The notes beneath the pieces are model-generated. The model ran no database searches. It was not told the origin of the DNA and was given only the letters and a program-made list of their open reading frames with translations. A program made the position numbers and the translations under genes. A stretch of DNA of 64,000 bases from an uncultured Pseudomonadales bacterium (GTDB lineage Bacteria > Patescibacteriota > Microgenomatia > UBA1400 > PJMF01), in assembly GCA_964412775.1 (NCBI GenBank), contig CAYPPX010000001.1:65122-129121 (forward strand), given 5' to 3'. This document shows, piece by piece, positions 1,527 to 39,959 of this stretch. The first letter of the stretch is position 1. Each line of letters opens with the position of its first letter.

Positions 1527-2546
1527 TTGCTCCAAAAACAGTATTATAGAAGTGTGTCAGATCTTTCTGCCCAACCAGCTAGTAGGATGGCTAGTCGTTT
1601 TGTTGCTAAACAAAACTCGGCTATTGGTTCATTAATTAGAAAAGGGATGACTACTCAAGTAGTTAAAGCAACCAACCTAAATGATCAGCCAGCTACCACT
1701 CAAACTAAAATTCCAAATCAAGTTGTGAGCTCTGTCTCAACTCAAACTACTTCACCCTCAGTTCAGGTGGATGATTTTAAAACCAGTCTTGATGGTTTAT
1801 CAAGTTTGGTAGATCAATCTAAGCCAATTGGTAAGACAGCTGAGGATGTTGATTTAGATTCATTGGTTGGTATTGGTTCAACTCCACAACCTCAGCTTCA
1901 GTCTAGCTCAACCGTCTCAACTCAGCCAACTGATGATGATTTTAAACCCAGTTCAGATCCTTTAACTGATTTTGAAAAAATTATTCAAGACTCAACCCAG
2001 TCCTTGGAAGAAAAGACTCCAGAACAAAGCCAAGAACAAAAATATGGTGATCTAGATATCTTGGATCAGGTAATTAGTGAAGTTGAAGCTGGTGTGGTAG
2101 ACCAAGTTATTCCTCAAGTTGTTGTTCAAACTACTAGTACTTTGAATCCTCAACATCCAGTAAAATCTGCTGGCAGTAAAGAATCAGCTGGTAATATATC
2201 TTTAGACCAAGTAGCGATTGACGCAGCTCGCGGAGCTCAACAAGTCGAAACAGAGCCAACTCCAGAAATTCCTCCTGAAGTAGAGAGTTATTTACAAAAA
2301 GTTGAACAACATACCAACACAGCTCCACCAGAAATCGTGATTGCAGACGGTTCTAATACTCAACCCAACAACCACAACTACCCAGCTCAGCCAGTAGTAG
2401 TTTTACCAATTACTCCAGAGATTGAAAAACAAGGGGCTAATAAAAGTCCCAAGTTTAGTGTTCGTTGGTTAGTAGAATGGAGTAGAAAAATTATGAAAAT
2501 GTTTTCTGGTAAAGTAATTTACCGATTACCAGAGGAGGTCAAATAA
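1527..2546 (+). CDS. low-complexity S/T/Q/P-rich hypothetical protein
   Basis: 339-aa ORF, compositionally biased (Q,S,T,P,V), stop overlaps next ATG (ATGA) suggesting translational coupling; start uncertain. Confidence 0.35.
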   Translation: MLQKQYYRSVSDLSAQPASRMASRFVAKQNSAIGSLIRKGMTTQVVKATNLNDQPATTQTKIPNQVVSSVSTQTTSPSVQVDDFKTSLDGLSSLVDQSKPIGKTAEDVDLDSLVGIGSTPQPQLQSSSTVSTQPTDDDFKPSSDPLTDFEKIIQDSTQSLEEKTPEQSQEQKYGDLDILDQVISEVEAGVVDQVIPQVVVQTTSTLNPQHPVKSAGSKESAGNISLDQVAIDAARGAQQVETEPTPEIPPEVESYLQKVEQHTNTAPPEIVIADGSNTQPNNHNYPAQPVVVLPITPEIEKQGANKSPKFSVRWLVEWSRKIMKMFSGKVIYRLPEEVK

Positions 2547-4882
2547 TGATTTTTGGCTCCGCTGATTTTCTAAACCAAGTTTCTTTGTTTTTCATGAACA
2601 TGTTTCTAGTGATTTTATTGTTGATAGCTTTATTTTTTTTGGGTTACTTATTTTTTCAGTGGTTTAAGCATCGTAAGAGAGAAAGCTACTCTTTAGACTT
2701 TGTCACTTTATTAGTGAGATTACCAAAAGATAATGAAATTAAGATTGATGCAGCAGAACAAATGTTCGCTGGTTTGCACTCACTCAAAAAGCAGGGCTTT
2801 TTCTCATTTTTACAGCCAGAGGAAATGATTAGTTTTGAGTTGGTTGGTCTTAAAGAAGAAATTGCCTTTTATGTTAGTTGTTCCAAAAGCATTCGTGATT
2901 TAGTTGAGAAGCAGATTCATGGCGCCTATCCATTTGCTGATATTAAAGAACAAGATGAAGTTAATATTTTTAATGAAAATGGTCGAGTGGGTTTTGCTTC
3001 TTTAAAGTTAAAAGAGGCCCAGTATTTACCAATAAAAACTTATAAAGATTTGCCTACTGATGGTTTGTCTTTGATTACTTCTGCTTTTTCTAAAATGAGT
3101 GAAGGTGAGGGGGCAATTTTGCAAATTTTAATTCACCCAGATGGAAATAAGTGGCAGCAAAAGGGTCGAAGATACATGCAGGATGAAAAGAAACGAGAAG
3201 CTGATCCACAAAAAGCTACCTACGGCCATGATCCTAAAGAGATGGAAGCGATTAATAACAAAATTGATAAGCCAGGTTTTAGGGTTTCTGTCAGAATAGT
3301 GGTTTCAGCCCAAAATGATGTTGCTGCTGAGTCACACTTGAGCAATATTAAGGGAGCTTTTGCCCAATTTGCTTCTGCTTACAATCAGTTTGAGGAACCA
3401 TGGTTTTTTATTAAACATCTTTTTATGATTGATTTTATTTATCGTTATATGCCTTTGTTTGGTTGGGGTAGTTTTACTTTAAACACTGAAGAGTTAGCCA
3501 CTATTTTTCACTTTCCCAACAAAACAGTTGAGACTCATCATATCAAGTGGTTAACAGCCAAAAATGCGCCAGCACCAAACTTGATTCCAAGCCAAGGTTT
3601 ATTTTTGGGTAAATCTGTTTATCGGGGTGAAGTTCGTAATGTTTATATGAACTTAAAAGATCGTCAGCGTCACATGTATATTATTGGTAAAACTGGTACA
3701 GGCAAGTCAGAATTCTTAAAAGAAATGATTATGCAGGATATTGAGTCCGGACAAGGTGTGTGTGCCATTGATCCACATGGTGAGTTTGTTGAAGATATTT
3801 TACAGATGATTCCACCAGAGAGAGCCGAGGATGTAATTTACTTTAATCCATCAGACTCAACTCGCCCAATGGGTTTAAATATGATGGAAGCTGACACTGA
3901 AGAGCAGCGTCACTTTGTGGTTAGTTCTGTTATTGGTTTGATGTACAAACTTTATGATCCACACCGTACTGGTATTATTGGTCCTCGGTTTGAGCATGCT
4001 ATTCGTAATGCAATGCTAACGATTATGTGCAAAGAAGGATCAACTTTTATTGAGTTGGTACGTGCTTTGACTGATCAAAAATTTGTTGAAGAGTTGTTAC
4101 CCCTAGTCAAAGATCCGGTGGTGAAGCGCTATTGGACAGACCAAATGGCTCAAACAAGTGACTTTCATAAATCAGAAGTGCTTGATTACATTGTTTCCAA
4201 GTTTGGGCGTTTTGTGACGAACAAAACGATGAGAAACATTATTGGTCAGCCTTTTAGTGCTTTTAACTTTAGAAAAGCAATGGACGAAAAGAAAATTATT
4301 CTTTGTAATTTATCTAAAGGTATTCTTGGAGAAGAGGATGCTAAATTTTTGGGTTTGATTTTAGTGCCTAAAGTTTTGACTGCAGCGATGAGTCGTCAAG
4401 ATATCCCAATGGAACAGCGTCAAGATTTCTTTTTGTATGTTGATGAGTTTCAAAACTATGCAACCGAAGATTTTGCCACGATTTTATCTGAGGCTCGTAA
4501 ATATAAACTGAACTTAATTGTGGCTAATCAGTTTATTGGCCAGATTGATGAAGAAGTGAAAAATGCTGTTTTTGGTAACGTCGGTACGATGGTGTCATTT
4601 AGAGTAGGTGTGACTGATGCTAATTTCTTACAACATGAGTTTTCACCAACTTTTACTGAGAATGATTTAGCCAATGTAGAGAAATTTCATGTTTATATTA
4701 AAACCATTGTAAACAATGAACCAGTGCCTGCTTTTAGTATGTCTCTTGAAAAAGATATGGACGAAGTTAAAGCAAGGATGAACCCAAAACTAGCAGAAAT
4801 GATTAAGCAACTGTCCAGACTTAAATATGGTAAAGATAAAGAAGTAGTTGAGGCTGAAATCCAAGTTAGAGCTAGGTTGTAA
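2546..4882 (+). CDS. TraG/TraD/VirD4-family (type IV secretion coupling protein-like) P-loop ATPase
   Basis: N-terminal TM helix, Walker A 'IIGKTGTGKSEF', Walker B-like 'FFLYVDEFQN', 778 aa; architecture of T4SS-DNA-transfer/TraM-recognition ATPases common in CPR. Confidence 0.5.
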   Translation: MIFGSADFLNQVSLFFMNMFLVILLLIALFFLGYLFFQWFKHRKRESYSLDFVTLLVRLPKDNEIKIDAAEQMFAGLHSLKKQGFFSFLQPEEMISFELVGLKEEIAFYVSCSKSIRDLVEKQIHGAYPFADIKEQDEVNIFNENGRVGFASLKLKEAQYLPIKTYKDLPTDGLSLITSAFSKMSEGEGAILQILIHPDGNKWQQKGRRYMQDEKKREADPQKATYGHDPKEMEAINNKIDKPGFRVSVRIVVSAQNDVAAESHLSNIKGAFAQFASAYNQFEEPWFFIKHLFMIDFIYRYMPLFGWGSFTLNTEELATIFHFPNKTVETHHIKWLTAKNAPAPNLIPSQGLFLGKSVYRGEVRNVYMNLKDRQRHMYIIGKTGTGKSEFLKEMIMQDIESGQGVCAIDPHGEFVEDILQMIPPERAEDVIYFNPSDSTRPMGLNMMEADTEEQRHFVVSSVIGLMYKLYDPHRTGIIGPRFEHAIRNAMLTIMCKEGSTFIELVRALTDQKFVEELLPLVKDPVVKRYWTDQMAQTSDFHKSEVLDYIVSKFGRFVTNKTMRNIIGQPFSAFNFRKAMDEKKIILCNLSKGILGEEDAKFLGLILVPKVLTAAMSRQDIPMEQRQDFFLYVDEFQNYATEDFATILSEARKYKLNLIVANQFIGQIDEEVKNAVFGNVGTMVSFRVGVTDANFLQHEFSPTFTENDLANVEKFHVYIKTIVNNEPVPAFSMSLEKDMDEVKARMNPKLAEMIKQLSRLKYGKDKEVVEAEIQVRARL

Positions 4883-4900: not shown

Positions 4901-4942
4901 GTGAGATACTTGCCCATGGGGCAGAGGGGCCGGAGTTGTCTG
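4901..4942. repeat. GC-rich ~40-nt conserved intergenic motif, copy 1
   Basis: gtgagatacttgcccatggggcagaggggccggagttgtctg; about 88% identical to copy at 12413-12454; contains hairpin TGCCC-nnn-GGGCA. Confidence 0.45.
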
Positions 4943-4989
4943 ATTGAGTTATAATACTTTTTCTCCTAATAACAGGAGAAATTTTTTTT

Positions 4990-8023: not shown

Positions 8024-9253
8024 ATGATAAAAGAACTTCAGAAAGTAGAGCCGACCCCAAATGAACTATTGGCAGAAAAATTAGAAAAAATAAGCCAAGA
8101 TCCTTTGTTTTGGTTTCTTAAAAAAGAGGTGGTTGAGAATAGCCCTTTTTGGAGACTTTTAACTTATCGTTTGCATGAAGCCCAAAATTCAGTTAATAGT
8201 CGTTTCATTTTTCATAGTAATAAAGTAAAAGCTGAAAATTCTGGATTTGTTTCCAAGCTTGATTTACTAATTGAGACAAGAGGTGGTAAAGAGGGCAAGC
8301 TTAATGAGGATGCCATTATGATTGAAAATCTTGGTGATGGTCGAGCTGTTTTTGCTGTATTCGATGGGGCTTCTAGTCAGGCACCAATCAAGGCTTTAGA
8401 GTCTCATGGTATTTCTGGTGCTTTTTATGTTTCTCATTTAGCTGCTTTTGGTTTTCCGACTAGTGATATCTTCCAAGAACTAAGTCAAAGAGATATTGTT
8501 ACAGCTGGTGAATTTACTAGGGCTTTAAACAAGTGGTTATATGAACAAATGAGTCAAGTTGATGGCGTTGATTATAATGATGTTTTAACTATTCCTGGTA
8601 TGGCCGCGACTATTGTAGTAGTTGATTTTAATAAACAGAATTTGTCAGTAGCAAGTGTCGCAGATACAGTTGGTATTGCTCACCATACAGATGGTGAATG
8701 GGATTATTTTACTGGTAACCTTAACGAAAGATTTGATCTTGAAACAATGTCTTTAGTTAAGCAAATTGCAGTAAGAGAAGGTATTTCAATTAAAGAAGCA
8801 GCTGGTTATCCAGAAGTTAAGGCTCAATTAGCTACTTCATTTAGAAAGAAAATTAATGCCCCAGAAGATTTACAAGGTTTAATTGGTTGTGGAATTTTAA
8901 ATGGTATGCCCGAATTAGAACACCCAGGTTTAATTGAAGAGTATTCTTTGGCTAGTTTGACTGATTTACACCAGTTGGTTTTGTGTAGTGATGGTGCTTT
9001 GACCCCATTTAAGGGTGAGGAAGTGGCTGATTTTTTGGTTAAGTTATTAGCTTTTAAAGAAAAGCACCTAGCTCAGCCAGGAATGATGAACATTGTAAAA
9101 AACTTATTAGATGAAGACCCAGACTTTTCATTGTTTGAACGTTTAAAGCACTCAGATGATGCTAGCTTACTAGTTATTGGGTTTAATCAACTTCGGGCTA
9201 TAGCATTTGAGAGATTTAGTTTGGTTAGGACCTTTTTTCAGAGAAAAAAGTAA
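8024..9253 (+). CDS. PP2C/SpoIIE-like phosphatase-domain protein (divergent)
   Basis: 'AVFAVFDGASS' and 'LVLCSDGALTPF' resemble PP2C motifs 2 and 8, but the His-Gly-Gly of motif 2 is replaced by Ala-Ser-Ser. Confidence 0.4.
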   Translation: MIKELQKVEPTPNELLAEKLEKISQDPLFWFLKKEVVENSPFWRLLTYRLHEAQNSVNSRFIFHSNKVKAENSGFVSKLDLLIETRGGKEGKLNEDAIMIENLGDGRAVFAVFDGASSQAPIKALESHGISGAFYVSHLAAFGFPTSDIFQELSQRDIVTAGEFTRALNKWLYEQMSQVDGVDYNDVLTIPGMAATIVVVDFNKQNLSVASVADTVGIAHHTDGEWDYFTGNLNERFDLETMSLVKQIAVREGISIKEAAGYPEVKAQLATSFRKKINAPEDLQGLIGCGILNGMPELEHPGLIEEYSLASLTDLHQLVLCSDGALTPFKGEEVADFLVKLLAFKEKHLAQPGMMNIVKNLLDEDPDFSLFERLKHSDDASLLVIGFNQLRAIAFERFSLVRTFFQRKK

Positions 9254-12250: not shown

Positions 12251-12323
12251 TGCGTGCGCTAGGACTTGAACCTAGAACCACCAAGGTATAAGCTTGGCGC
12301 TCTGCCAATTGAGCTACGCACGC
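12251..12323 (-). tRNA. tRNA-Ile (anticodon UAU)
   Basis: Hand-folded 73-nt cloverleaf on minus strand: acceptor GCGTGCG/CGCACGC, D-stem GCTC/GAGC, anticodon stem CCAAG/CTTGG with loop CTTATAC, T-arm CTAGG-TTCAAGT-CCTAG; no encoded CCA. Confidence 0.8.
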
Positions 12324-12412
12324 TTTATGATGTGCTAATTATAAAACAAAACAGATTAAACTATTTGAGTAGTTTGATTTAGTTATTTGTAGTCAGCTGG
12401 TGGAAATGTTCG

Positions 12413-12454
12413 TGTGAGACACTTGCCCACGGGGCAGAGGGGTCGGGTTGTTTT
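12413..12454. repeat. GC-rich ~40-nt conserved intergenic motif, copy 2
   Basis: gtgagacacttgcccacggggcagaggggtcgggttgttttc; lies between surface-protein gene stop and tRNA-Ile. Confidence 0.45.
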
Positions 12455-12456
12455 CT

Positions 12457-13689
12457 TTACAAGAAGAGTAACAGTAATGCACCAATACCAAGGGCTCCAA
12501 GACCAACTTGTAAGTATTGTAGCCAATTTTCTGGACCACTCTTTGGTAGCTCTGAAGGAAGAGTTGGTTCAGTTGAAGTATATCTGTTAGTGATATTAAC
12601 AGTAGCCGTACTTGAAGACGATGAGCTAGATGAGGAACTACTGCTACTACTGCCTTCAGTTGGAACGGCTGTTGGGGCATTACAACAGGCTGCTTTGCCA
12701 GGGTTAGCGATACAAGCATCCTCATAGGCAGGCATTGAACAATAATTGTCACCGTCATTGGCAGTGACACAGATTAAGCCATCATTACAATCATTATCAT
12801 CGTCACAAGGGGTGTAGCCACATTCTTCTGGTAAAGGAGTTGGAGTAATAGTTGGGGTAGGTTCATTACAACAGGCCTCAACACCAGGGTTAGCGATACA
12901 AGCATCCTCATATTCAGGTAGAGAACAGTATTTATCACCATCATCAGCAGTAACACAGATCAAACCCTCATCACAGCTGGCATCAGTAGTACAAGGAGTG
13001 TAACCACATTCACTAATCATCGGAGTTGGACTTGGGGTAACAGTAATGGTTGGAGTAATAGTTGGGGTTACACCAGGAGGTAGTGTTGGAGTTGGACTTG
13101 GTACTCTGGTTGGTGTTGGAGTAGCAGTTGGTGTAATAGTCGTAGTTGGAGGCTCGGTTGGTTCAGGTGGTTCGGTGGGTCTTGGTGGTCTAGTAGGTCC
13201 ACCACCAGGACAACAGCCATCTTCATCTGGCCCATAAATATCAGAACAACACACATAGCCTTCAACACAACAAGTTGTTCCTTGGCCTTGATAGTTAGTA
13301 CAGTAAGCTCTGCCTTGATTTTCACATTGGGTTTCTAATTCTGGTTCGCATTTTGTTCCATTACATAAATCTCCACCTAAACAGTGACACCACTCTGGGT
13401 GTCCACCACAAGCATTAGGGTCATTAATGTTACACTCAAAGTTACTATATTGACCGGTATCTGCCTGTTGACGTAAATCTTGGTTGAGTTTGGTCATGTA
13501 AAGACCAGCAATACCTCCAAGAACTAGGAGTAAAAGTGATAAAAAAGCAAAAACAAGTTTTGTTTTTTTACTATTTGTATTTTTTAGTTTTTTTTCTTTG
13601 AAACTATTACCATCACCATTAACTATAGTCTTATCTAAAGAGGGGATATCACCAATTGGCTGGTTGATTTTAGTTAACAGGTCGGACAT
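12457..13689 (-). CDS. cysteine-rich cell-surface protein, paralog 1 (signal anchor, Cys modules, PT linker, poly-Ser, C-terminal LPKSG sorting-like signal)
   Basis: ORF 12457-13701 starts at a TTG; the first ATG is at 13689. N-terminal TM followed by conserved [17 protein letters not shown], two ECGYTPC...CVTADDGDKYCSLPEYEDACIANPG..CC modules, 16 consecutive Ser, and C-terminus ...[30 protein letters not shown]. Confidence 0.6.
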   Translation of the reverse strand: MSDLLTKINQPIGDIPSLDKTIVNGDGNSFKEKKLKNTNSKKTKLVFAFLSLLLLVLGGIAGLYMTKLNQDLRQQADTGQYSNFECNINDPNACGGHPEWCHCLGGDLCNGTKCEPELETQCENQGRAYCTNYQGQGTTCCVEGYVCCSDIYGPDEDGCCPGGGPTRPPRPTEPPEPTEPPTTTITPTATPTPTRVPSPTPTLPPGVTPTITPTITVTPSPTPMISECGYTPCTTDASCDEGLICVTADDGDKYCSLPEYEDACIANPGVEACCNEPTPTITPTPLPEECGYTPCDDDNDCNDGLICVTANDGDNYCSMPAYEDACIANPGKAACCNAPTAVPTEGSSSSSSSSSSSSSSTATVNITNRYTSTEPTLPSELPKSGPENWLQYLQVGLGALGIGALLLLFL

Positions 13690-13747
13690 GTATTTATACA
13701 ATACATAGAATAGCTTGTTTTTTATAGATTCGTCAATCTGCTGATTA

Positions 13748-15082
13748 TTATAAAAATAAGATTAATAATGCCCCAATACCTAATGCTCCAAGACCAATTT
13801 GTAAGTAGTTTAGCCAGTCGCTTGGTCCAGATTGAGGTAATTTTTCTGGATAGGTTGGTTGCTCACCTTTTGTAGTGGTTTTAGTGGTTGTTTTAGTTGG
13901 AGTTGCTGTTGTTGTTTTAGTAGCCACTTTGGTTGGAGAAGAGGTCGTATTGTTGGTAACAGTTCTGCCTCCACCTGACACAACAGTATTATTTTCAATG
14001 TTTATAACGACTGATGAAGATGAACTACTGCTAGAACTGCTGCTAGATGAGCTACCTCCACTTGGTGGGTTGGTTGGAGCAATACAACAAACAGCTTTAC
14101 CAGGGTTAGCGATACAAGCTTCTTCATATTCTGGCATCGAACAATAGTTATCACCGTTATTAGCAGTGACACAAATTAGGTCATCGCTACAATCGTTATC
14201 ATCGTCACAAGGAGTGTAACCACATTCTTCAGGTGCTGGAGTAGCGGTTGGAGTTGGAGTGGTAGTGGCTGTTGGAGCGATACAACAAGATTCGGTGCTT
14301 GGGTTATCTATACAAGCATCTTCATATTCTGGTATCGAACAATAGTTATCACCGTCATTAGCAGTGACACAAATTAGGTCATCGCTACAATCGTTATCAT
14401 CGTCACAAGGAGTGTAACCACACTCACTTGGCTCTGGGGTAGCAGTTGGAGCGTTACAACATTTTTCTACTCCTGGTTCGATAGCACATTCTTCAGCATA
14501 TTCTGGCATCGAACAATAGTTATCACCGTTATCAGCAGTGACACAGATTAAATCTTCACCACAGTCATTATCATCATCACATGGGGTGTAGCCACACTCA
14601 CTTGGCTCTGGGGTAGCAGTTGGAGCGTTACAACATTTTTCTGTCCCTGGTTCAGCGATACAAGCTTCTTCATATTCAGGTAAAGAACAATAGCTATTTC
14701 CATTTTCAGCGGTAATACAACTGAGGCCCTCAGCACAGTCGTTGGCCGTTTCACAAGGGCCAAAGCCACAATTTGCTTTGAGAGTTGGACCTGGAACAGT
14801 AAAGGAAATATGGCAACTATCTTGATTTATAAAGGCTGCAGGTTGTGAGTCTGGAGCATTTGGAGCTTTAATTGAATCATCAATAAATTGTTTTTGTGAA
14901 ATTAATACGCCAGCTAATCCAAGAATAAAAAAAGATAATAATCCAAAGGTAGTTAGGATAATATTTTTAATATTCTTCTTTGGTTTTTCTGGTTTGTTAA
15001 ATGAAGGCACGGAATCATTCAGCTTTACTTCAAAAGCTGTTGGATCTTGTTTGACTGGTAGGTTCTTTTTTAAATCAAGCAT
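13748..15082 (-). CDS. cysteine-rich cell-surface protein, paralog 2 (four tandem 8-Cys modules, C-terminal LPQSG signal)
   Basis: N-terminal TM; 4 repeats of SECGYTPCDDDNDC..DLICVTA.NGDNYCS.PEYEEACI..PG...CC.APTAT; poly-Ser (16); TTK-rich linker; C-terminus [32 protein letters not shown]; 9 nt downstream of paralog 3 (operon). Confidence 0.65.
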   Translation of the reverse strand: MLDLKKNLPVKQDPTAFEVKLNDSVPSFNKPEKPKKNIKNIILTTFGLLSFFILGLAGVLISQKQFIDDSIKAPNAPDSQPAAFINQDSCHISFTVPGPTLKANCGFGPCETANDCAEGLSCITAENGNSYCSLPEYEEACIAEPGTEKCCNAPTATPEPSECGYTPCDDDNDCGEDLICVTADNGDNYCSMPEYAEECAIEPGVEKCCNAPTATPEPSECGYTPCDDDNDCSDDLICVTANDGDNYCSIPEYEDACIDNPSTESCCIAPTATTTPTPTATPAPEECGYTPCDDDNDCSDDLICVTANNGDNYCSMPEYEEACIANPGKAVCCIAPTNPPSGGSSSSSSSSSSSSSSVVINIENNTVVSGGGRTVTNNTTSSPTKVATKTTTATPTKTTTKTTTKGEQPTYPEKLPQSGPSDWLNYLQIGLGALGIGALLILFL

Positions 15083-15091
15083 TTTTACTTT

Positions 15092-16255
15092 TTAGTCTTC
15101 ACAAGCTGTTGGTGTTAGGCTCTCCCAATCACAAACAGTATCTCCTGCTTCATCGATGCTACAAACAGAACATTGAGCCATGTAATCACCATACATACTA
15201 ATATTGTAATTAATTCCGTTTTCACCCTCTTCATTAATAAATTCTAGAGGTTCTAAGTGGTTATGACTGCCACATGGTTCGTAGATTCTAAAGGCGTAGA
15301 AGTATCCATCTGGTAAGGAACTTTGATTACTACTACAAACAAATCTAACAGTACTTTGTCCAGCAATAAGTTGATCATCGTCATTAGCTGACATTAGACT
15401 GCTTTGACCACTAGTCACGTTGTACATAGCAATATCTCTACATTGTGGTCCAATCATTGTTGTAGGGGTTGGAGTAGGCTCATTACAACAGGCCTCAACA
15501 CCAGGGTTAGCGATACAAGCATCCTCATATTCAGGTAGAGAACAGTATTTGTCACCATCATTAGCAGTGACACAGATTAAACCATCGTTACAACTGGCAT
15601 CAGTAGTACAAGGAGTGTAACCACACTCATTAATTACTGGAGTTGGACTTGGTGTAGGAGTGCTAGTTGGTGTAGGGGTAGCAGTAGGGGTAATGGTTGT
15701 AGTTGGTGGGTCAGTTGGATCTGGAGGATCATCTGGAGGGTCGTTTGGAGGGCAGTCAGTACAGACAACTCCGGCATCTTCACACAAAGCATCACAGCTA
15801 TCTGCAACACCAATTACCCAGTAGCCCTGGTCATTTCCTGGACCACATTTGCAACGGATCATACCTCCAGTACAACCTTCTACAACTGTAGTATTGGGAT
15901 TGTCACACCAATCACCACCCAAAGTATCTTCTGTACATAAACCGTCATCGTCATAACCACAAACAATAATGCCGTCACCATCAGGATCATCACAGTTTTC
16001 TAGCACACAACGGCCATTCACTAGATGGTAGTTTGGTTCGCAACTATATTGACCGGTATCTGCTTGTTGACGTAAGTCTTGGTTGAGTTTGGTCATAAAC
16101 AAGCCAGTGGTAACACCAATTACTAAAAAGAGTAAGGAGGCGATACCGATTAATAACTTATTTTTTGAAGATTGAGCGACAGCAAATTGAACCGTTTTTT
16201 TGCTTGGTTCTCTAGCAGAACTAAAACTAGTATTTTGGGGATCACTAGATTCCAT
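15092..16255 (-). CDS. cysteine-rich secreted/surface protein, paralog 3 (no C-terminal sorting signal)
   Basis: N-terminal TM + [18 protein letters not shown] (nucleotide sequence nearly identical to paralog 1), Cys-rich N domain, PT linker, one ECGYTPC module, distinct Cys-containing C-terminal domain ending ...TPTACED. Confidence 0.6.
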   Translation of the reverse strand: MESSDPQNTSFSSAREPSKKTVQFAVAQSSKNKLLIGIASLLFLVIGVTTGLFMTKLNQDLRQQADTGQYSCEPNYHLVNGRCVLENCDDPDGDGIIVCGYDDDGLCTEDTLGGDWCDNPNTTVVEGCTGGMIRCKCGPGNDQGYWVIGVADSCDALCEDAGVVCTDCPPNDPPDDPPDPTDPPTTTITPTATPTPTSTPTPSPTPVINECGYTPCTTDASCNDGLICVTANDGDKYCSLPEYEDACIANPGVEACCNEPTPTPTTMIGPQCRDIAMYNVTSGQSSLMSANDDDQLIAGQSTVRFVCSSNQSSLPDGYFYAFRIYEPCGSHNHLEPLEFINEEGENGINYNISMYGDYMAQCSVCSIDEAGDTVCDWESLTPTACED

Positions 16256-16312
16256 AAATAAACTGTTATTAAGAATATATCTTTTTTCAAGTACTCGTCA
16301 ATGAATAAAAAT

Positions 16313-16340
16313 AAAAAGGGACTAATTTTTAGTCCCTTTT
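16313..16340 (-). terminator. intrinsic terminator downstream of paralog 4
   Basis: Perfect 10-bp stem aaaagggact/agtccctttt with 7-nt loop, followed on the minus strand by T-rich tract. Confidence 0.55.
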
Positions 16341-16365
16341 ATTAATCTTAGTTATTATTGGTTTT

Positions 16366-17214
16366 TTATAAGAAGAGTAGTAGCAGTGCTCCAGCTCCTA
16401 AAGCACCCAAACCAATCTGTAAGTATTTAAGCCAGTCTTCTGGTCCAGTTTCTGGTAATTGTTCTGGTAAATCTGGTTGAGTAGTGTAACTAGTAGTACC
16501 AGTGCTGGTGCTAGTATTGATGTTTACAGTAGCACTACTATTACTTTCTGAGTAACTACTTGATGAACTGCCATCATTGTTGTTTGATTGGGTTGGTTCT
16601 GCTGTTGGTTCGGTTGTGGGCTCACTTCCACCAGTAGTTGGTTCGGTTGTCGGTTCACCGGTTGGTTCGGTTGTGGGCTCACCAGTTGGTTCAGTTGTAG
16701 GTTCACCAGTTGGTTCAGTTGTAGGTTCTGCTGTTGGTTCGGTTGTCGGTTCACCGGTTGGTTCGGTTGTGGGAGCTACAGTTGGAGTTGGATCAGATGA
16801 TCCAGCATCACAAGTACACTTAGCTTTACCATCGTTTCCAATTTGGTTTGGTAGTGATCTACATTCTCCATCACCACCACATGAATCACCTGGATCTTTG
16901 CCTTGACATTGAGAAGCAGAAGCATCAGAACAGTCGCCTCCAGTAGTGTATGCTCCTGTATCAGCCTGTTGACGTAAATCTTGGTTAATCTTCATCAAGT
17001 AAAGACTAATTCCACCACCTATTACTAATAGTAGTAAGAGAATCCCAGCAATTAGATAGCGTTTATTACTTTTTCTAGTGGGTTTTTTTGAAAATCTTTT
17101 TAGAGTCGGTTCTTTGTTTTCTGCTTTGTCGCTATTTAATTGAGTTGGATCAGCTGGTAAGCTAGGTCCAGACACATCGTTGCTATAACTAGGATTTTGG
17201 ATGGTATTAATCAT
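16366..17214 (-). CDS. cysteine-rich cell-surface protein, paralog 4 (EPTT/GEPT tandem repeats, C-terminal LPETG signal)
   Basis: N-terminal TM + [17 protein letters not shown], 12-Cys domain, about 9 tandem TEPTGEPT repeats (12/24-nt DNA periodicity), S-rich tract, C-terminus [32 protein letters not shown]. Confidence 0.6.
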
Positions 17215-17290: not shown

Positions 17291-18139
17291 TTGAATAGTA
17301 ATTTATATTATGGTATTTATTTTTATATAGAACTAAGACTTGTGACAATCAACAATTTAAGATCTCTTGAAAAATACAAAAACTGGTTTGATTTTTTGTG
17401 GTCAATGGCTGAAAAAGAAACTAAAGCAAGATATAAAAATGCTTTGCTTGGTTTTTCGTGGATGGTTATCAATCCAGTTTTGCAAATGTTAATTATTGGG
17501 ATTATTTTTCAGTTTTTTGTTTCTTTTCAAACCATAGACAACTATTATTTATTTTTGTTAGTTGGTTTATTAGTATGGAATTTTTTTTCATCAAGCTTGA
17601 GCCAAGTTTCTCCTGTTTTTATTCAGCAACGTTTTTTATTACAAAAAGCAAGTTTTTCTAGAGAGATTTTGCCACTTTCGGTTATTTTGTCGAATATGTT
17701 TCATATTATTGTTTCTCTTGTTTTACTTTTAGTTTATATTTTTATTTTTAATGGTTTTGTTTTTTCATTTGTTAAATTAGTGTTACTTCTTTTTTCAGTT
17801 ATTTGGTTGCTTATTTTTACTAGTGGATTGGGTTTGTTGACTTCATCTTTAAATGTCAAATACAGAGATGTAAGTTTTATGGTTCAAGCATCGTTACCAC
17901 TTGGTTTCTACTTAACGCCGATTATTTATGATGAAAGCATGTTGCCTGGCAGTATTAGGTGGTTATTATTCATTAACCCTTTGAGTTCAATTATTGCAAA
18001 TTTAAAATCTGTATTTTTATCAACTACTGTTTTATCTATTAATTACCAAATACTTAGTATTTTTGTGACAATTTTAATTTTATTTTTAGGCATTTTTGTT
18101 TTTTTTAGAAACAGTAAAAACTTTAGTGACTATGTTTAA
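17291..18139 (+). CDS. ABC-2 type polysaccharide/teichoic-acid export permease (Wzm/TagG-like)
   Basis: 'LWSMAEKETKARYKNALLGFSWMVINP' matches the Wzm/KpsM N-terminal signature, 6 TM; true start may be GTG at 17342 or ATG at 17405. Confidence 0.7.
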   Translation: MNSNLYYGIYFYIELRLVTINNLRSLEKYKNWFDFLWSMAEKETKARYKNALLGFSWMVINPVLQMLIIGIIFQFFVSFQTIDNYYLFLLVGLLVWNFFSSSLSQVSPVFIQQRFLLQKASFSREILPLSVILSNMFHIIVSLVLLLVYIFIFNGFVFSFVKLVLLLFSVIWLLIFTSGLGLLTSSLNVKYRDVSFMVQASLPLGFYLTPIIYDESMLPGSIRWLLFINPLSSIIANLKSVFLSTTVLSINYQILSIFVTILILFLGIFVFFRNSKNFSDYV

Positions 18140-18142
18140 TTT

Positions 18143-18871
18143 ATGAAAAAAAATGCTGTTATTTCTCTAAAGAACATTACTAAAGAATATACTTTAAGAG
18201 GGCATAGACCAACTTTAGTGGAAAGATTGCTTGGGAAATCTAAGTTGGAAAAAGTTGAAGCATTACATAATTTGAGTATTGATATTTTTCCTGGGCAAAA
18301 AGTAGGTATTGTTGGCTCAAATGGTTCAGGTAAAACTACTTTTTTAAAAATTATTTCTAATATTTCTCAACCCACATCTGGTGAAATGAAAGTTGTTGGT
18401 CGAGTTGTGTCAGTCATAGATTTGGAGGCTGGATTTCATCCAGATCTTTCAGGTAGAGAGAATATTATGATTAATGGCATGATTTTAGGTATGACTAAGA
18501 AAGAAATATTATCAAAAATGAATGAAATTCTTTCTTTTGCTGATATTGGTAGATTTATTGATGAACCAATATTTACTTATTCAAAGGGCATGAAACTTAG
18601 GTTGGGCTTTGCTATTGCAATTAGTAGTGATCCGGATATTTTTTTGCTTGATGAGATGATTGCTGTAGGTGATAAAGAATTTAAAGCCAAAACGGCAAAA
18701 AAAGTTGCTTCTTTTTTGAAGCAAGGTAAAGTGGTGGTTATTGCTAGTCATTTAATTGATTTTATTGGTCTTTCATGCAAAAGAATTGTTTGGTTGGAAA
18801 AAGGTAAAATTTTGGCAGATGGTGGTAAAGAAGTTGTAAAAAAGTACAAAAAATACAAAAGTTCTTTATAA
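18143..18871 (+). CDS. ABC-2 exporter ATP-binding protein (Wzt/TagH-like)
   Basis: Walker A GSNGSGKTT, Walker B FLLDEMIAVGD, 242 aa without C-terminal carbohydrate-binding domain. Confidence 0.85.
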   Translation: MKKNAVISLKNITKEYTLRGHRPTLVERLLGKSKLEKVEALHNLSIDIFPGQKVGIVGSNGSGKTTFLKIISNISQPTSGEMKVVGRVVSVIDLEAGFHPDLSGRENIMINGMILGMTKKEILSKMNEILSFADIGRFIDEPIFTYSKGMKLRLGFAIAISSDPDIFLLDEMIAVGDKEFKAKTAKKVASFLKQGKVVVIASHLIDFIGLSCKRIVWLEKGKILADGGKEVVKKYKKYKSSL

Positions 18872-18886
18872 ATTTTATTAATATAA

Positions 18887-20146
18887 ATGGAAAAAGTTTT
18901 TAAGAAAAAAATGTTTAATTTTTTTAGAAATAAGTACGACATTGTTATTAGCGCTCATGATTTTGGTTTGGGGCCAACTTCTATCATTTCTCAAACTTTA
19001 AAAAACCAAAATAAGTACAAATTTGGTTTGATAGGTAACAAAAACCAAGAAAATTTTATTAATAAACAGGGTTTTAAGGTAAAGTTATTGGCAGATCAGT
19101 ATGACTATTTAAATTCTAAAAATAGAGTCAAAGCCACAGTCTCATGTTTTGATCCGATGCTAGTTTTTTCTTCATGGAAAAGGGGTATTCCTGTTTTATA
19201 TATAGATAGTTTACTTTGGTTTTGGGATTTTGATGAAAAAAAATTACAAAAAACTTATGAAAAATTGTTTGCTTTGAGGGAAACTAGTAATCAAGATTTT
19301 GACTTTAGAGTTAAAGAAATAGTTGATTTTGATAGTCATTTACCTTTTGTTTTAGCACATTTATTTTCTACTCACTCTTTGATTCAACGTTTTGGTGGGT
19401 TAACGGAAAAAAGATTGAAGTTTATTAGAAAATTTAATAAGCAAATTAGTCTTTTTGGGGCTTTAGTTCCTAAAAAAAATAATTTAATTAAAGAAAAAGT
19501 TACTAAACCAGTTATTTATGTTCAACTTGGAGGTATGCTTAATCCAAATACTGGTTTAGATTTTAGTAAGAAATACGTTAATTATATTGCACAGATATTA
19601 GACCAAATTAATAAAAAAGATATTTATAAAGTTATTTTTAAGGTTAATTCTATTTTTGACAATTTAAAAAACAAATATAAACATTTAGATGTAATTGGTA
19701 ATTTATCATTTACTGAGCATATTTCCTTAATAAAAAACTGTGATTTTTTGATTTTGCAGCCAGGGCAACATGGTATTTATGAGTCTGTTTTTTTTAAAAA
19801 AAACATTTTTCTGTTACCGGAACAAACAACTTCTCATACTGTTCATGTTAAAGAAATGATTAAGAATGGCTTTGTGGTTGATCAGCATATGTTTTTTGAC
19901 TTTTATGATGCCAAAGCAAACAAGGAGAATACTGATTATTTGGTAAAAGGATTAAATCAGTTTAGAAGAGACAAAGTGAAGTTAATAAATAAAATTGAAG
20001 AATTTTTTCATAAAGATAAAAAACTTACAACCAAAGAGATTAAAACAAGATATCAAGTTACCAAAAGATTATTGGGTGATTTTGGTGGCAATGAAACTTT
20101 AATAAAGACTGCAGATTTATTTTTTAAAAAATTCGTTGATAATTGA
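18887..20146 (+). CDS. hypothetical protein (possibly glycosyl/glycerophosphotransferase-like)
   Basis: 419-aa soluble ORF in glycan cluster; no confident motif. Confidence 0.3.
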   Translation: MEKVFKKKMFNFFRNKYDIVISAHDFGLGPTSIISQTLKNQNKYKFGLIGNKNQENFINKQGFKVKLLADQYDYLNSKNRVKATVSCFDPMLVFSSWKRGIPVLYIDSLLWFWDFDEKKLQKTYEKLFALRETSNQDFDFRVKEIVDFDSHLPFVLAHLFSTHSLIQRFGGLTEKRLKFIRKFNKQISLFGALVPKKNNLIKEKVTKPVIYVQLGGMLNPNTGLDFSKKYVNYIAQILDQINKKDIYKVIFKVNSIFDNLKNKYKHLDVIGNLSFTEHISLIKNCDFLILQPGQHGIYESVFFKKNIFLLPEQTTSHTVHVKEMIKNGFVVDQHMFFDFYDAKANKENTDYLVKGLNQFRRDKVKLINKIEEFFHKDKKLTTKEIKTRYQVTKRLLGDFGGNETLIKTADLFFKKFVDN

Positions 20147-26797: not shown

Positions 26798-27703
26798 ATG
26801 TCTGGTTTGTTGACTGTCGCAATTGTCACTAAAAATAGGAAAGTTGAGTTAAATAATTGTTTATCTAGTTTGGTAGAGCAAAAAGTTTTACCAAATGAAG
26901 TATTAGTTATTGATAACGACCCAGCTAGATCTGCTCAGGAAGTTATTAAAAATGAACGGTTCAAGGTTCTTAATATTAAGTATCTGAATTCAAAAAAAAC
27001 AGTCCCTGGTTGTAGAAACTTAGCTTTGGCCAAAACTAAAACTAAGTTTTTAGCGTTTACTGACGATGATTGTGTTTTAACACCCAATTGGCTTGCTTCT
27101 GGTTTGAGTAAGATAAAAACACACAATTCAAGTTACGTTTTAGGCAACAGTTTATTGTTAAACAAGCAAAGTATTTTAGCTTCAGCTCAGTTTGCTAGAG
27201 AAAACTATTGGAGAAAAATTGGTTTAAAAAAAGACTCAACTGATCCTAGAGAAGTTTTTGATACCAAAAATGTAATCATCAACTTACAAAAAATAATCAA
27301 AAATAAATTGAAGTTTGATGAAAAGATTCAATTTGGAATATATGACACGGCTGACTTTGATTTTGGTTATCAACTAAAAGCTGCAGGTTTAACTGGTTGT
27401 TATGAAAAAGAAATGAAGCTCTATCATGCCGAAACGTCAGTATTTAGGTCTTTTGCTCAAAAAGCTTTTGCTAGAGGCAAGTTAATGAATATTTTGCAAC
27501 AGAAGTTTGAAATTAAAAAAGATTTTATCAATAAGCGTGATGTGATTTTGCTTTTGTGGATTTTCAGGTTAATTAAACATTTCAGAGGAGATTTTAAAAA
27601 GTACTCAAAACAGATTAGTGGTGGAACTTTTAAAAAATTATTGGTTATTTTAAGTATCAAAGTTTATGAGAGATTTTTTGCTCTTGGGTATTCAGCCTCA
27701 TGA
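26798..27703 (+). CDS. glycosyltransferase family 2
   Basis: 'VAIVTKNRKVELNNCLSSLVEQ', 'VIDNDPA', 'TDDDC' DxD region. Confidence 0.7.
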   Translation: MSGLLTVAIVTKNRKVELNNCLSSLVEQKVLPNEVLVIDNDPARSAQEVIKNERFKVLNIKYLNSKKTVPGCRNLALAKTKTKFLAFTDDDCVLTPNWLASGLSKIKTHNSSYVLGNSLLLNKQSILASAQFARENYWRKIGLKKDSTDPREVFDTKNVIINLQKIIKNKLKFDEKIQFGIYDTADFDFGYQLKAAGLTGCYEKEMKLYHAETSVFRSFAQKAFARGKLMNILQQKFEIKKDFINKRDVILLLWIFRLIKHFRGDFKKYSKQISGGTFKKLLVILSIKVYERFFALGYSAS

Positions 27704-29178
27704 TTGCTAGTTTAAAGAAAAATACTGACTGGTTGGCAATCGCGAGTACTGTTGTTTTTTTTATTTTAGTATTGATGTCACCATCAGTTAAAATTTATTT
27801 TTTAGTTAGTTTACTCTGGTTTTTATTTTTATCTTTTTTTTACTCTTTCCCCAAAGCCCTGGTTTATACAGTGCCACTTTTGATGTCTTTTAATGCTGGC
27901 CAAGAGTACTCTTTTCAAGTCATTGGTCCTAACGACTTAAAGTCTGTTCAGTACTGGAACGGGAAACATTTATTTTTTGTTTTGTCACCTCATATGTTTA
28001 TTTGTTTAGTTGGCTTAGTGTTGTTACCTTTCTTTTATAAGCAGAGTAAGTTTAAGCTCTTTTTTCATGAAACTATTTTTATTTTTATGTTTTTATCTTT
28101 TTTGTTTTCATCTCTTTGGTTCTCTCAAATACCATTTTTGAGTTTACTTTTTTATTTTAAAGAAAGTGTGGTGGTTGTTTGGCTGATTTATATTTTTCTT
28201 TTTAGCAAGAAAAATAAATCTGAGAAAGAAAAAATTGTGTTTACATTTATCATTTTGTTGACAATTAATTTACTTTTTGAGTCTGGTTTAGTAACTATTC
28301 AGTTGCTAAGAAACTCAACTATTGGTTTAGTGATTGAGAAAACCCAATTAATTCCAGTTTTTGGTCTTGGTGCCGATGAAGGTGGTGGGTTTAGACCTTT
28401 TGGTTGGTATCCACATGCTAATAGTTTAGCTAACAATCAATTAATTTTTACTTTTGCTATTTTATTTTTATCTACTTATTTAAAAAACAACTTTTTTAAT
28501 AAATTAAAAAAGTTTTTACTACCAGCAGTTATATTTATGGGTTTGTTTTCATCATTTGTTGCTTTGAGTAGATCAGCTATTTTGGCTATTTTTCTGGCAG
28601 TTTTAATCTTTGTAATTGTTGGTTTTAAAAAAGATGAGTTTTATTCATTTTTGAGTCTATCTAACAGAAATATAAAGAAACTCTCACCAATTTTTAAATT
28701 ACTAATTTTGTTAGTTGGTTCGTTTTTAATTTTAAAAATGGTTGGCAGAATGGTTAATAGTTCATTTATTTTTTCACCATCTGGTGGTTTATATACAAGA
28801 ACTGAACAGTTTAGTGAGGCATTAGAAGTTGTTAAAAATGTTCCTTTTTTTGGGGTAGGAGTGGGAATGTTTATTCCAGCGTCATTTAGTTATTTTCCAC
28901 TAGGACAGATGAGATACTTTCCAGAAGATGTTCATAATGGATTTTTATTGTTTTTAGTTGAAAGAGGTTTTGTTGGCTTATTATTGTTAGTTTTATTTTT
29001 ATTTTTACTCTTTAAAGAACTAGTTAATTTATTTAAGAATAAAAAAACCAGAGCCGTGATATACTCAGGTTTGATGGCTGGCTTTATCATAATGCTTTTC
29101 CATCCATTTATTAATATTTTTAGTTTTAGTGTATTGTTTTTATTGGTAATAATTCATTATGAAAAAGAAACTATTTAA
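27700..29178 (+). CDS. O-antigen ligase/polymerase-like (Wzy_C family) membrane protein
   Basis: About 10 or more TM helices with a larger external loop near the C-terminal half, 492 aa, glycan-cluster context. Confidence 0.45.
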   Translation: MIASLKKNTDWLAIASTVVFFILVLMSPSVKIYFLVSLLWFLFLSFFYSFPKALVYTVPLLMSFNAGQEYSFQVIGPNDLKSVQYWNGKHLFFVLSPHMFICLVGLVLLPFFYKQSKFKLFFHETIFIFMFLSFLFSSLWFSQIPFLSLLFYFKESVVVVWLIYIFLFSKKNKSEKEKIVFTFIILLTINLLFESGLVTIQLLRNSTIGLVIEKTQLIPVFGLGADEGGGFRPFGWYPHANSLANNQLIFTFAILFLSTYLKNNFFNKLKKFLLPAVIFMGLFSSFVALSRSAILAIFLAVLIFVIVGFKKDEFYSFLSLSNRNIKKLSPIFKLLILLVGSFLILKMVGRMVNSSFIFSPSGGLYTRTEQFSEALEVVKNVPFFGVGVGMFIPASFSYFPLGQMRYFPEDVHNGFLLFLVERGFVGLLLLVLFLFLLFKELVNLFKNKKTRAVIYSGLMAGFIIMLFHPFINIFSFSVLFLLVIIHYEKETI

Positions 29179-30034
29179 ACTAAAAAAACAGTTTTTAAAG
29201 AAAGTTAAAGAAGCGAGCATTATTGATCTTCTGGGAATTTTTTTAGTAGTTTTTTTAGTTGGTTCAGCCTACTTTTTTTTCAGTAGAAAAACAGAATACT
29301 TAGAAGTGACCATCAAACTTTTAAACTACGATGGGCCTGAATATACCTTTGGCCAGAATAAACCCAGAGCTTTATACGTTGAGAAAATCAAACCTGGTAA
29401 AAAACAAATTGATGGTATTGGTAGATCTTTATCAGAAATAGTTGATGTTTATGAGTATTCATCTCCAACAGTTTTAAATGATGTTTATGTTACCTTAAAA
29501 CTAAGAGCTTTGAAAAATAAAGTCTCTAACCAATATATATTTGATGGAACTCCTTTATTAATTCATGAAATTAGATCATTTAAAATTCAAGATTTACTAT
29601 TAACTGGTGAAATCGTTGATTTATCGGCTGAGCAAAGAACTTACAAGGAATTTGTGGCTAAATTGGAAATAGAGCCTGATTTTGGTGCTTATAATGTTAG
29701 CTCAGCTTTAATTGAAGGTGTTGAAAACTATGTAGCTGATTCACTTGAGCCAGGAATGGTGATTAGAGATAGCACTGGTAGAGAGTTAGTCAAAATTATA
29801 ACAATTGATAAAAAACCAGGAACCAGAAGTTTTGTTTCTGAAAATGGTTTTTATTCAGTCGAGGATCCAAATAGAAAAAGAGTTTTTTTAACGATTAAAG
29901 TATTGGGAGAAAAAATTAATAATGGTTATTTTTATAGAAAAGAAAGCCCATTACTATTAAATGAAAAGTTATATTTAACTTTTGATAATATTGCTTTTTT
30001 AGGTACTATTTTTTCAATTGAAGAGAGCAATTAA
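29159..30034 (+). CDS. hypothetical membrane-anchored protein
   Basis: Single N-terminal TM, 291 aa, overlaps neighbours at both ends (operon). Confidence 0.3.
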   Translation: MKKKLFKLKKQFLKKVKEASIIDLLGIFLVVFLVGSAYFFFSRKTEYLEVTIKLLNYDGPEYTFGQNKPRALYVEKIKPGKKQIDGIGRSLSEIVDVYEYSSPTVLNDVYVTLKLRALKNKVSNQYIFDGTPLLIHEIRSFKIQDLLLTGEIVDLSAEQRTYKEFVAKLEIEPDFGAYNVSSALIEGVENYVADSLEPGMVIRDSTGRELVKIITIDKKPGTRSFVSENGFYSVEDPNRKRVFLTIKVLGEKINNGYFYRKESPLLLNEKLYLTFDNIAFLGTIFSIEESN

Positions 30035-30039
30035 CTTAA

Positions 30040-30888
30040 ATGAAAAAATACCCCAAAATATCTATTGTTACACCGTCTTTTAATCAAGGAGAGTTTTTAG
30101 AAAAAACAATTCAATCGATTGTTGGTCAGAATTATCCCAATCTAGAATATGTAATTATTGATGGCGGTTCCACTGATGGTAGTCAAAAAATTATTAAAAA
30201 ATACCAAAAATATTTAAAGTACTGGGAAAGCAAAAAAGACAGAGGTCAATCTCATGCTATCAACAAGGGTTTTTCTAAAACTAATGGTGAAATTATGGCT
30301 TGGTTAAATAGTGATGATATGCTAATGCCAGGAGCTTTGCATTTAGTAGCTAGTATTTTTTCAAACTTTCAAGAGATTAAGTGGCTTACAAGTTTGCCTT
30401 CGACAATTAACGATCAAGGTTATCAGCTTTATTTGGCTCAACCACCTTTTTATGTTAGCAACTTTATTAAAAGGGGATGGTATACCAAAAAATTTATGGG
30501 TTTTGTGATGCAAGAAGGAACTTTTTGGCGAAGGAGTTTGTGGAAGAAGGCTGGTGGCAGATTGGCCGAGGTACCATATTCAATGGATTTAAAATTATGG
30601 CAAAGTTTTGCTCAGCACGCTCAACTTTATCCAGTTCAGGCTTGTTTGGCTTCATATCGTTTAAACCCTAACCGAAAAAATAATGATAATCATGCTAAAT
30701 ACTATCGAGAAATGAATGCAATTGTTCCAGAAAAAGTCAGTTTAGTTGGTAAAATTATTTGGAGGCAAATTGCCAAATTTGCTCACCACTTACATTTGGC
30801 TCCAATTATTTATTATGATCAACATAAACTAAAATGGTTTTTTAGAAAAAACTTATTTGAAACTAAACAATTTGAATTATTAGATTAA
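30040..30888 (+). CDS. glycosyltransferase family 2
   Basis: 'KISIVTPSFNQGEFLEKTIQSIVGQNYPNLEYVIIDGGSTDGS', 'WLNSDDML'. Confidence 0.8.
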   Translation: MKKYPKISIVTPSFNQGEFLEKTIQSIVGQNYPNLEYVIIDGGSTDGSQKIIKKYQKYLKYWESKKDRGQSHAINKGFSKTNGEIMAWLNSDDMLMPGALHLVASIFSNFQEIKWLTSLPSTINDQGYQLYLAQPPFYVSNFIKRGWYTKKFMGFVMQEGTFWRRSLWKKAGGRLAEVPYSMDLKLWQSFAQHAQLYPVQACLASYRLNPNRKNNDNHAKYYREMNAIVPEKVSLVGKIIWRQIAKFAHHLHLAPIIYYDQHKLKWFFRKNLFETKQFELLD

Positions 30889-30890
30889 CT

Positions 30891-33601: not shown

Positions 33602-33603
33602 TA

Positions 33604-34317: not shown

Positions 34318-34320
34318 ATA

Positions 34321-35430: not shown

Positions 35431-35501
35431 TAACTAAATTAGCTATTTAAACAAAAAAAGGTTAGAACCCTTATCTGGTCATATTATAGTACAATTTACT
35501 T

Positions 35502-36707: not shown

Positions 36708-36842
36708 AACGTAAATAAATGGTCCAACTGGTGATGCTTGGGTAAACACAACAAGCAAACCAAAAATTACTAAAATAATTACTGGTGGGATTAACCACCA
36801 TGATTTATTTTTCCATAAATAAGCAAAAAGTTGTTTAAACAT
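36699..36842 (-). CDS. small membrane protein, DUF5989-like (47 aa)
   Basis: Hand-translated: MFKQLFAYLWKNKSWWLIPPVIILVIFGLLVVFTQASPVGPFIYVLF; below the ORF-track size cut-off; this matches my recollection of a tiny-protein family that accompanies NodU/CmcH carbamoyltransferases. Confidence 0.45.
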   Translation of the reverse strand: MFKQLFAYLWKNKSWWLIPPVIILVIFGLLVVFTQASPVGPFIYVLF

Positions 36843-36856
36843 ATTTAAATTTTATT

Positions 36857-38868: not shown

Positions 38869-38955
38869 ATATTCGTTACCTAAACAAACTATTTCATATT
38901 AACTCAGATGTCAAGGTGATTGTTTGAACTACTTGTTATAGTTAGTAACTATGAT

Positions 38956-39933: not shown

Positions 39934-39959
39934 AAGTTAAAGAGATGTTAACACAATAT

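Follow-up and report, generated by a model that had tools for sequence, protein, structure and literature searches.

The window analysed here, a stretch of 64,000 nt from a member of Candidatus Pacebacteria (CPR/Patescibacteria, according to named homologs of its ATPase), carries two copies of a GC-rich intergenic element. Judged from comparison with related loci, the element has a core of about 30 nt which is under purifying selection, and it is predicted to fold into a bulged hairpin whose pairing favours the + strand. In the best reading of these data, which we hold only tentatively, the element is a strand-specific RNA hairpin that is recognised by a protein and lies at the ends of + strand transcripts. 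It is of a familiar kind, that of short intergenic hairpin motifs, and not a new type of system.

A 29-mer pattern, GTGAGAYACTTGCCCAYGGGGCAGAGGGG, matched exactly at two positions, both on the + strand. Even with three mismatches allowed, these were the only matches in the 64-kb window, and the chance expectation was 0 matches (100 dinucleotide-preserving shuffles). The two cores and their hairpins are as follows.

4901..4929, + strand: conserved core of copy 1, GTGAGATA then CTTGCCC-ATG-GGGC(A)GAG then GGG (pattern match; CM R1, 55 bits; RNAalifold hairpin)
4909-4926, + strand: hairpin of copy 1, with 5' arm 4909-4915, loop 4916-4918, 3' arm 4919-4926 and bulged A4923
12414..12442, + strand: conserved core of copy 2, GTGAGACA then CTTGCCC-ACG-GGGC(A)GAG then GGG (pattern match; CM R1, 60 bits)
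12422-12439, + strand: hairpin of copy 2, with 5' arm 12422-12428, loop 12429-12431 and 3' arm 12432-12439

The copies were aligned by blastn at 89.7% identity over 39 positions with one gap. Outside the core they were identical at 7/15 and 8/23 positions, not above neutral sequence. The first-pass annotation had described a 42-nt pair of about 88% identity at 4901-4942 and 12413-12454; both sequences are indeed in the window, but the similarity that matters extends over about 29-31 nt and copy 2 begins one base later, at 12414. The same annotation saw a TGCCC/GGGCA hairpin, which is present but longer, with a 7-bp stem (CTTGCCC/GGGC(A)GAG) and a 1-nt bulge. Its remarks that the copies are strikingly GC-rich, intergenic and in a common orientation were borne out: with rRNA and tRNA excluded, no other 30-mers of the window (27-41% GC, in a genome of about 33% GC) are as GC-rich as the two copies, and both are intergenic and on the + strand.

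The genes and signals around the two sites are listed below.

2546-4882, + strand: ATPase gene, 778 aa, DUF8128/DUF87/TrwB_AAD_bind, 'type IV coupling-protein-like' (Pfam)
4952-4957, + strand: conserved TATAAT ahead of the MFS gene
4960-4981, + strand: hairpin TTTCTCCT-AATAAC-AGGAGAAA (terminator scan), followed by a T8 run to 4989 and then by the MFS start codon
12250-12323, - strand: tRNA-Ile(UAU) (ARAGORN, Rfam), its 5' end 90 nt from copy 2
12457-13701, - strand: first gene of the surface-protein array (ORF list; no Pfam match; repeat families D1-D5)

At site 1, copy 1 begins 19 nt past the stop codon of the ATPase gene, the last gene of a + strand operon, and the + strand is the sense strand for the genes on either side. 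At site 2, copy 2 lies between the surface-protein array and tRNA-Ile, a placement already given in the first-pass annotation and on which the ORF list, ARAGORN and Rfam agree; the stop codon of the first surface-protein gene (12457-12459) is 14 nt from the end of the core. Between the copies are encoded an MFS protein, a 180-aa protein, a protein of amino-acid-kinase fold, a 122-aa protein, a PP2C-like protein, MacB, an ABC ATPase and an HlyD-type protein. The hairpin at 4960-4981, 30 nt downstream of copy 1, contains the MFS Shine-Dalgarno sequence in its 3' arm and occurs also in relatives lacking the element. Two related loci, L049 and L054, keep the 4952-4989 layout with compensatory changes in the stem (the hairpin of L049 reads TTCTCCAG-ATCAA-CTGGGGAA). 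This hairpin is ancestral and may be a terminator of the ATPase operon, an MFS leader that sequesters the Shine-Dalgarno sequence, or both.

Across the ten copies of the element from the window and related loci, the helix takes the form CTTNCCC : GGGN-(bulge)-NAG, with seven pairs and a loop of 3-4 nt, and RNAalifold gave the same structure as the reading drawn by hand. One extrahelical base was present in the 3' arm of every copy (10/10), so that the arms measure 7 and 8 nt. In this register 97% of the alignment cells in the helix are paired, against 40-76% when the register is slid. At the fourth pair, the window lineage has G:C, site 1 of group A (by which we mean the near-identical relatives L005/L006, L010 and L011) has A:U, and site 2 of L011 has U:A, while site 2 of L010 shows an A-G mismatch there. 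The covariation score was reached by 2 of 500 column shuffles; it rests on this one pair and on about 4-5 independent lineages. At site 1 of L010 and L011, U:G pairs were observed, which are compatible with pairing on the + strand only, and the + strand hairpin was more stable than its complement in nine of the ten copies. The unpaired flanks are invariant, with TGAGA on the 5' side and a G-run, GGG(G), on the 3' side, and the core opens with GTGAGA, ATGAGA or CTGAGA depending on the copy. The hairpin itself is weak (-6 to -8 kcal/mol), and folds of the whole region on both strands gave z-scores near 0, no better than shuffles. Together, the constant bulge, the difference in arm length, wobble pairing confined to one strand and the sequence conservation of loop and flanks point to a folded single strand that is read by a specific protein rather than to a generic stable stem or a palindrome bound by a dimer.

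Constraint on the core is seen most clearly against the L054 locus, whose ATPase is 98% identical to that of the window at the amino acid level and whose ATPase gene is 88% identical at the nucleotide level. While only 59% of the 4-fold sites of this gene were identical, the cores matched at 27/29 positions for copy 1 (P ~6e-5) and at 28/29 positions for copy 2 (P ~6e-6). Within the window lineage, loop and flanks were invariant but for two transitions. Between the window and group A, identity was 47% at 4-fold sites and 21-26 of 30-31 positions in the core; the core of copy 2, for example, was identical to that at site 2 of L010 at 26/30 positions. The sequences next to the core (15 nt before and 23 nt after it) showed identity at the neutral level, and so the unit under constraint is about 30 nt long.

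Conservation of this kind might also be expected of double-stranded DNA, for example of a binding site for a clade-specific regulator or a roadblock protein located upstream of the MFS and tRNA-Ile promoters. Consistent with such a site, conservation in the window lineage is sequence-specific and not merely structural, the arms of the inverted repeat covary, as operator half-sites also do, the extra sequence at site 1 stops just before the conserved TATAAT, 22 nt past the core, and at site 2 the distance between the start of the core and the TATAAT preceding the tRNA gene is about 70 nt. However, the 7- and 8-nt arms break dyad symmetry in every copy, and the U:G (T:G) positions would be mismatched half-sites. 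Moreover, spacing and orientation relative to the promoters are not the same at the two sites, the core beginning about 50 nt upstream of TATAAT and on its strand at site 1 but about 70 nt upstream and on the opposite strand at site 2. Within the 22-kb loci, there is no regulator gene whose presence follows that of the element. Because the asymmetry of the arms is found in all ten copies, a folded strand fits better than a palindrome bound by a dimer, and we consider a duplex site rather unlikely.

To follow the element in relatives, loci around the ATPase gene were compared from about 50 of them, and absence was scored both by eye and with a covariance model trained on seven copies. The window, L054, L010 and L011 carry the element in both orthologous spacers, the latter three in a diverged yet clearly homologous form. 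In L005 and L006 it was present at site 1, and the contigs of these two stop short of site 2. Both spacers were devoid of the element in L049-L052, L012/L001-L004, L007-L009, L014, L013 and L045, and it was found in none of the more distant loci fetched. In the sister lineages represented by L049, L012, L007 and L014, which lack the element, gene order is unchanged. A neighbour-joining tree of six concatenated proteins placed the carriers (window, L010 and L011) in one clade with bootstrap support of 190/200 and L049 as its sister. Relative to L049, each site has 50-55 nt of extra sequence, delimited as follows.

4901..4950 (+/-5 nt), + strand: site-1 insertion, between AAGTTTAGG and TTATAAT (alignment realigned by eye)
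12396..12449 (+/-5 nt), + strand: site-2 insertion, between TTTGTAGTCA and GTTTTCTTTAC (aligned with the element-less L049, L012 and L014)

At site 1, L049 and L052 read stop-AGTTTTTAGAAATTTGG-TTTATAAT with no insert between. Inspection of the alignments by eye showed neither terminal inverted repeats nor an evident target duplication at the insertions. From this distribution, the simplest history would be one gain per site on the branch leading to the carrier clade.

Some of these loci showed peculiarities of their own. At the DNA level, L010 and L011 share 98-100% identity outside a tract of about 2.3 kb (~17400-19700), where identity drops to 80-90%. This tract comprises the HlyD gene, tRNA-Ile, site 2 and the first surface-protein genes and looks like an imported recombination; this apparent import would explain why the site-2 copies of L010 and L011 differ so much. 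Other lineage-specific sequence is present just past the ATPase stop, i.e. (TTTTCCC)x3 in L014 (~12355-12380) and a long GC-rich palindrome in L048 (~12260-12345). New hairpins seem to have a hot spot in the spacer past the ATPase stop.

The number of copies is low wherever it was assessed. A scan of the 64-kb window with the covariance model and filters off returned the two copies and no third, and no additional copy was present in a further 7.5 kb to the left in L054, L010 and L011 or in L055, a 22-kb locus of the L011 genome that surrounds the PBP gene and extends 9.5 kb past the right end of the window. Exact 22-mer scans of genome and metagenome contig collections gave 0 matches, as did a degenerate pattern of the family in metagenome and viral contigs. 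The idea that the element is dispersed, put forward in the first-pass annotation, thus found no support in the approximately 80 kb sampled, where only two copies occur, at the same two orthologous sites in every carrier. No curated RNA family covers the element. Nothing in Rfam 15 reached the gathering threshold, and matches at E<=10 were of chance level (11-16 bits, against thresholds of 38-115); the comparison took in mini-ykkC/guanidine-II, the PyrR site, small ribozymes and terminator-type leaders. A loop of ACGG (ACGR-like) is found in some copies only, and there is one hairpin, not two. In the literature, nothing was found on such an element in CPR.

Several other candidate identities were rejected. 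A Box C/D- or TIGR-like unit (GUGAGAU...CUGA) could be drawn in copy 1 of the window only, with no array and no Nop protein, and a hammerhead-like CUGAUUGAG is likewise confined to copy 1 and not conserved. As for the IMH/hairpin of a DGR, there is no reverse transcriptase and no template repeat, and the orientation at site 1 is wrong. The resemblance to a KOPS/SRS-like GGGNAGGG is only loose, the number of G-tracts needed for a G-quadruplex is not conserved, and derivation from the 23S rRNA of the window yielded no blastn-short match.

The presence/absence polymorphism, with two insertions of about 50-55 nt on one branch, brings to mind the REP/RAYT and IS200/IS605 systems, and a REP- or IS200/IS605-like miniature element is the main rival of the RNA hairpin. 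REP/RAYT systems consist of intergenic palindromes of 20-40 nt, dispersed in tens to hundreds of copies, often as inverted pairs, together with a Y1 (RAYT/TnpA) transposase, and REPs of the E. coli type have a conserved 5' GTAG tetranucleotide. According to this rival, the element would be a relic, or a domesticated copy, of a bulged hairpin of single-stranded DNA which an HUH-type (Y1) transposase acting at the replication fork would paste into two nearby spacers. Like REPs and the subterminal hairpins of IS200/IS605, the element is a short, GC-rich, imperfect palindrome, intergenic and close to gene ends, with an extrahelical base in the stem, a conserved single-stranded 5' flank, G:T-tolerant pairing on one strand only, and neither terminal inverted repeats nor a clear target duplication. 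Furthermore, it looks foreign in an AT-rich genome, and both copies are on the G-rich (+) strand, which by the monotonic GC skew would be the lagging-strand template. On the other hand, there are only two direct copies in 64 kb, at orthologous sites, and none in the 7.5 kb to the left and 9.5 kb to the right in relatives, and the scans with degenerate patterns found no matches in metagenome and viral contigs. The old copies are under strong purifying selection, which is unexpected for a selfish relic, and the 5' flank reads GTGAGA or ATGAGA and not GTAG. Finally, no domain of a Y1 transposase, integrase or other transposase was detected among ORFs of at least 110 aa in the window, which is a fraction of the genome. 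We regard a REP- or IS200-like origin as unlikely, though as the strongest alternative to the RNA hairpin.

An older suggestion was that the two copies are direct repeats left by integration of the 7.5-kb segment between them. An att-bracketed island is expected to be an accessory block with an integrase and with a repeat that overlaps a tRNA or the 3' end of a gene. The bracketed block does include a tRNA, the repeats are co-present or co-absent at both sites, and in L011, though in this locus only, the 60-nt stretches that precede the two copies gave a better alignment than 500 shuffles did. Nevertheless, the block is found in the same order without the repeats in L012/L001, L049 and L014, and since sister lineages lacking the element keep the gene order, the 7.5-kb block is no att-bracketed island. 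The arrangement h122-MacB-ABC-HlyD-tRNA-Ile beside the ATPase gene is ancestral across Pacebacteria, and only the MFS/180-aa/kinase/PP2C part just past the ATPase gene varies between lineages. Among the ORFs of the window, no transposase, integrase, reverse transcriptase, Cas or Nop domain was found (Pfam), and the repeats do not overlap the tRNA, copy 2 being separated from its 5' end by the 90 nt given above. The similarity upstream of the copies was not significant against genomic background in L010 or in the window, the element-less L049 already has the AACCAGG..GGTAGTTT block at site 2, and the limits of the divergent tract between L010 and L011 do not coincide with the element. Both the integration event and the att-type repeat or recombination scar are therefore very improbable, and together with the short peptide considered below, the att repeats are close to excluded. 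A duplication of at least 100 nt reaching the end of the ATPase coding sequence was also tried and rejected; it was significant in L011 only and is contradicted by L049. That the transporter/tRNA block is not a mobile island is a useful negative result in itself.

Two further observations were made in this region. The PP2C-like gene (8024-9253 of the window) is an indel, present in the window and L014 and missing from L054, L010-L012 and L049. The tRNA-Ile with the rare UAU anticodon is linked to the DUF87/TrwB ATPase gene across Microgenomates, as exemplified by L034 (3929-4001), L036 (12375-12448) and L037 (12373-12446), all on the + strand. In loci of Levyibacteria type it is located directly past the ATPase stop on the same strand, and in Pacebacteria it is inverted relative to the ATPase gene, with the MacB-ABC-HlyD cluster between.

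Selection at the level of a peptide was considered as well, because 10/10 copies are open for at least 12 codons when read from core base 1, and the core would then be the start of a micro-ORF encoding (V/M)R(H/Y/C)LP(T/M/L)G.... We find this reading hardly credible. Frameshifting indels separate close relatives (L010 and L005; window and L054), one copy starts with CTG instead of GTG or ATG, and site 1 offers no usable Shine-Dalgarno sequence, for which reasons it was rejected. In addition, the predicted peptides, 12 to more than 30 aa in length, have tails that are unrelated to one another, and both variable positions of the core are non-synonymous.

We thus return to the strand-specific RNA hairpin. 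In the first-pass annotation, a small structured RNA and a regulatory or terminator-like element had been named among the possibilities. This part agrees with the purifying selection, the bulged hairpin and the covarying pair, but the element is not a canonical intrinsic terminator and has no match in Rfam. Intrinsic terminators consist of a GC-rich stem-loop with a U-tract within 0-2 nt, and conservation of loop or flank sequence is not needed. The element resembles them, and the hairpins that stabilise 3'-UTRs, in its location a few to about 20 nt past a stop codon, in the T-rich sequence downstream of 8/10 copies and, for site 1, in being oriented as the upstream operon. It differs in its weak stem, in the sequence conservation of loop and flanks, and in that the site-2 copy is antisense to the gene ending there. 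Since the T-run begins only 9-20 nt past the stem, after a G-rich spacer, the element cannot be regarded as a canonical intrinsic terminator, and the terminator scan of the window listed the hairpin at 4960-4981 and neither copy of the element.

The mechanism which we propose for the RNA hairpin is as follows. The clade-specific, cis-acting element of about 30 nt would work single-stranded on the + strand, most likely as RNA, and the parts recognised would be the 7-bp stem, whose bulge of 1 nt is constant, together with its neighbouring sequences, namely unpaired UGAGAYR 5' of the stem and GGG(G) 3' of it. By analogy, an architecture of this kind is typical of hairpins that are read by proteins and unlike that of stems which need only stability. 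At site 1, + strand transcription of the ATPase operon would stop after its last gene, at the element; at site 2, + strand read-through from the transporter/tRNA block would otherwise proceed antisense into the surface-protein genes. The outcome might be that + strand 3' ends are marked or protected, with the element serving as a factor-dependent terminator, an insulator or a 3'-end stabiliser. We propose marking or protection of 3' ends because the copies face the same way, at places where + strand transcription should end, although two copies share an orientation with a chance expectation of 50%. Transcription of the element, a protein reader and an effect on termination or stabilisation are all three inferred. 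Evidence against this reading comes from site 2, which yielded no conserved + strand promoter and is not the end of any + strand gene. At site 1, the hairpin 30 nt downstream already offers a canonical terminator, in relatives lacking the element too, and the element may not belong to the MFS transcript, being located upstream of its TATAAT. The weak stem and the unremarkable folds of the whole region count against it as well.

To our knowledge, little is known about transcript ending, stabilisation and insulation in CPR/Patescibacteria. It is conceivable, if improbable, that the element is the site of an undescribed CPR protein which reads a bulged hairpin on one strand, either as a new termination or insulation signal or as part of a new HUH-type or recombinase system. 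In the former case, a factor-dependent signal would fence the transporter/tRNA block from + strand read-through; in the latter, the HUH-type or recombinase system would act at both ends of the block. Similar architectures are known from the bottom strands of integron attC sites and from CRISPR repeats cut by Cas6-type enzymes, with which the element shares the unit of about 30 nt, the central hairpin with a fixed extrahelical base, the conserved single-stranded handles and the single orientation of all copies. Unlike these, it is not tandem and has no R'/R'' core sites, and what separates the copies is neither a cassette nor a spacer; genes for Cas, Tas or integrase proteins are absent from the window. 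TIGR loci are laid out as a tandem array of repeat units beside tas genes (PMC12045711). As opposed to CRISPR and TIGR arrays, the copies of the element are 7.5 kb apart, and there is no array at or near either of them.

With regard to significance, a 30-nt motif that was apparently gained twice and is near-invariant, while neutral sites differ by 40-50%, should provide a clean handle on its binding partner. Its practical value is limited, as it concerns a genus-level clade, two sites and no phenotype tied to the element.

A few features of the rest of the window are recorded here. The surface-protein array next to site 2 (12457-17214, - strand) comprises four genes with common 5' ends (an 83-nt repeat family), internal repeats of 146-218 nt and 12-nt tandem repeats of PT type at 16592-16803. 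The segment 45627-49070 contains tRNA-Ala(UGC) and the 23S and 5S rRNA genes; the 16S gene appears to be unlinked, since protein genes are situated directly upstream of these rRNA genes and no 16S gene is present in the window. GC content is low (27-32%) over 18000-44000. The region ~26800-43200 is a cell-envelope polysaccharide cluster, which encodes mainly glycosyltransferases, O-antigen-ligase-like (Wzy_C) proteins, GDSL lipases, a carbamoyltransferase and a sugar epimerase.
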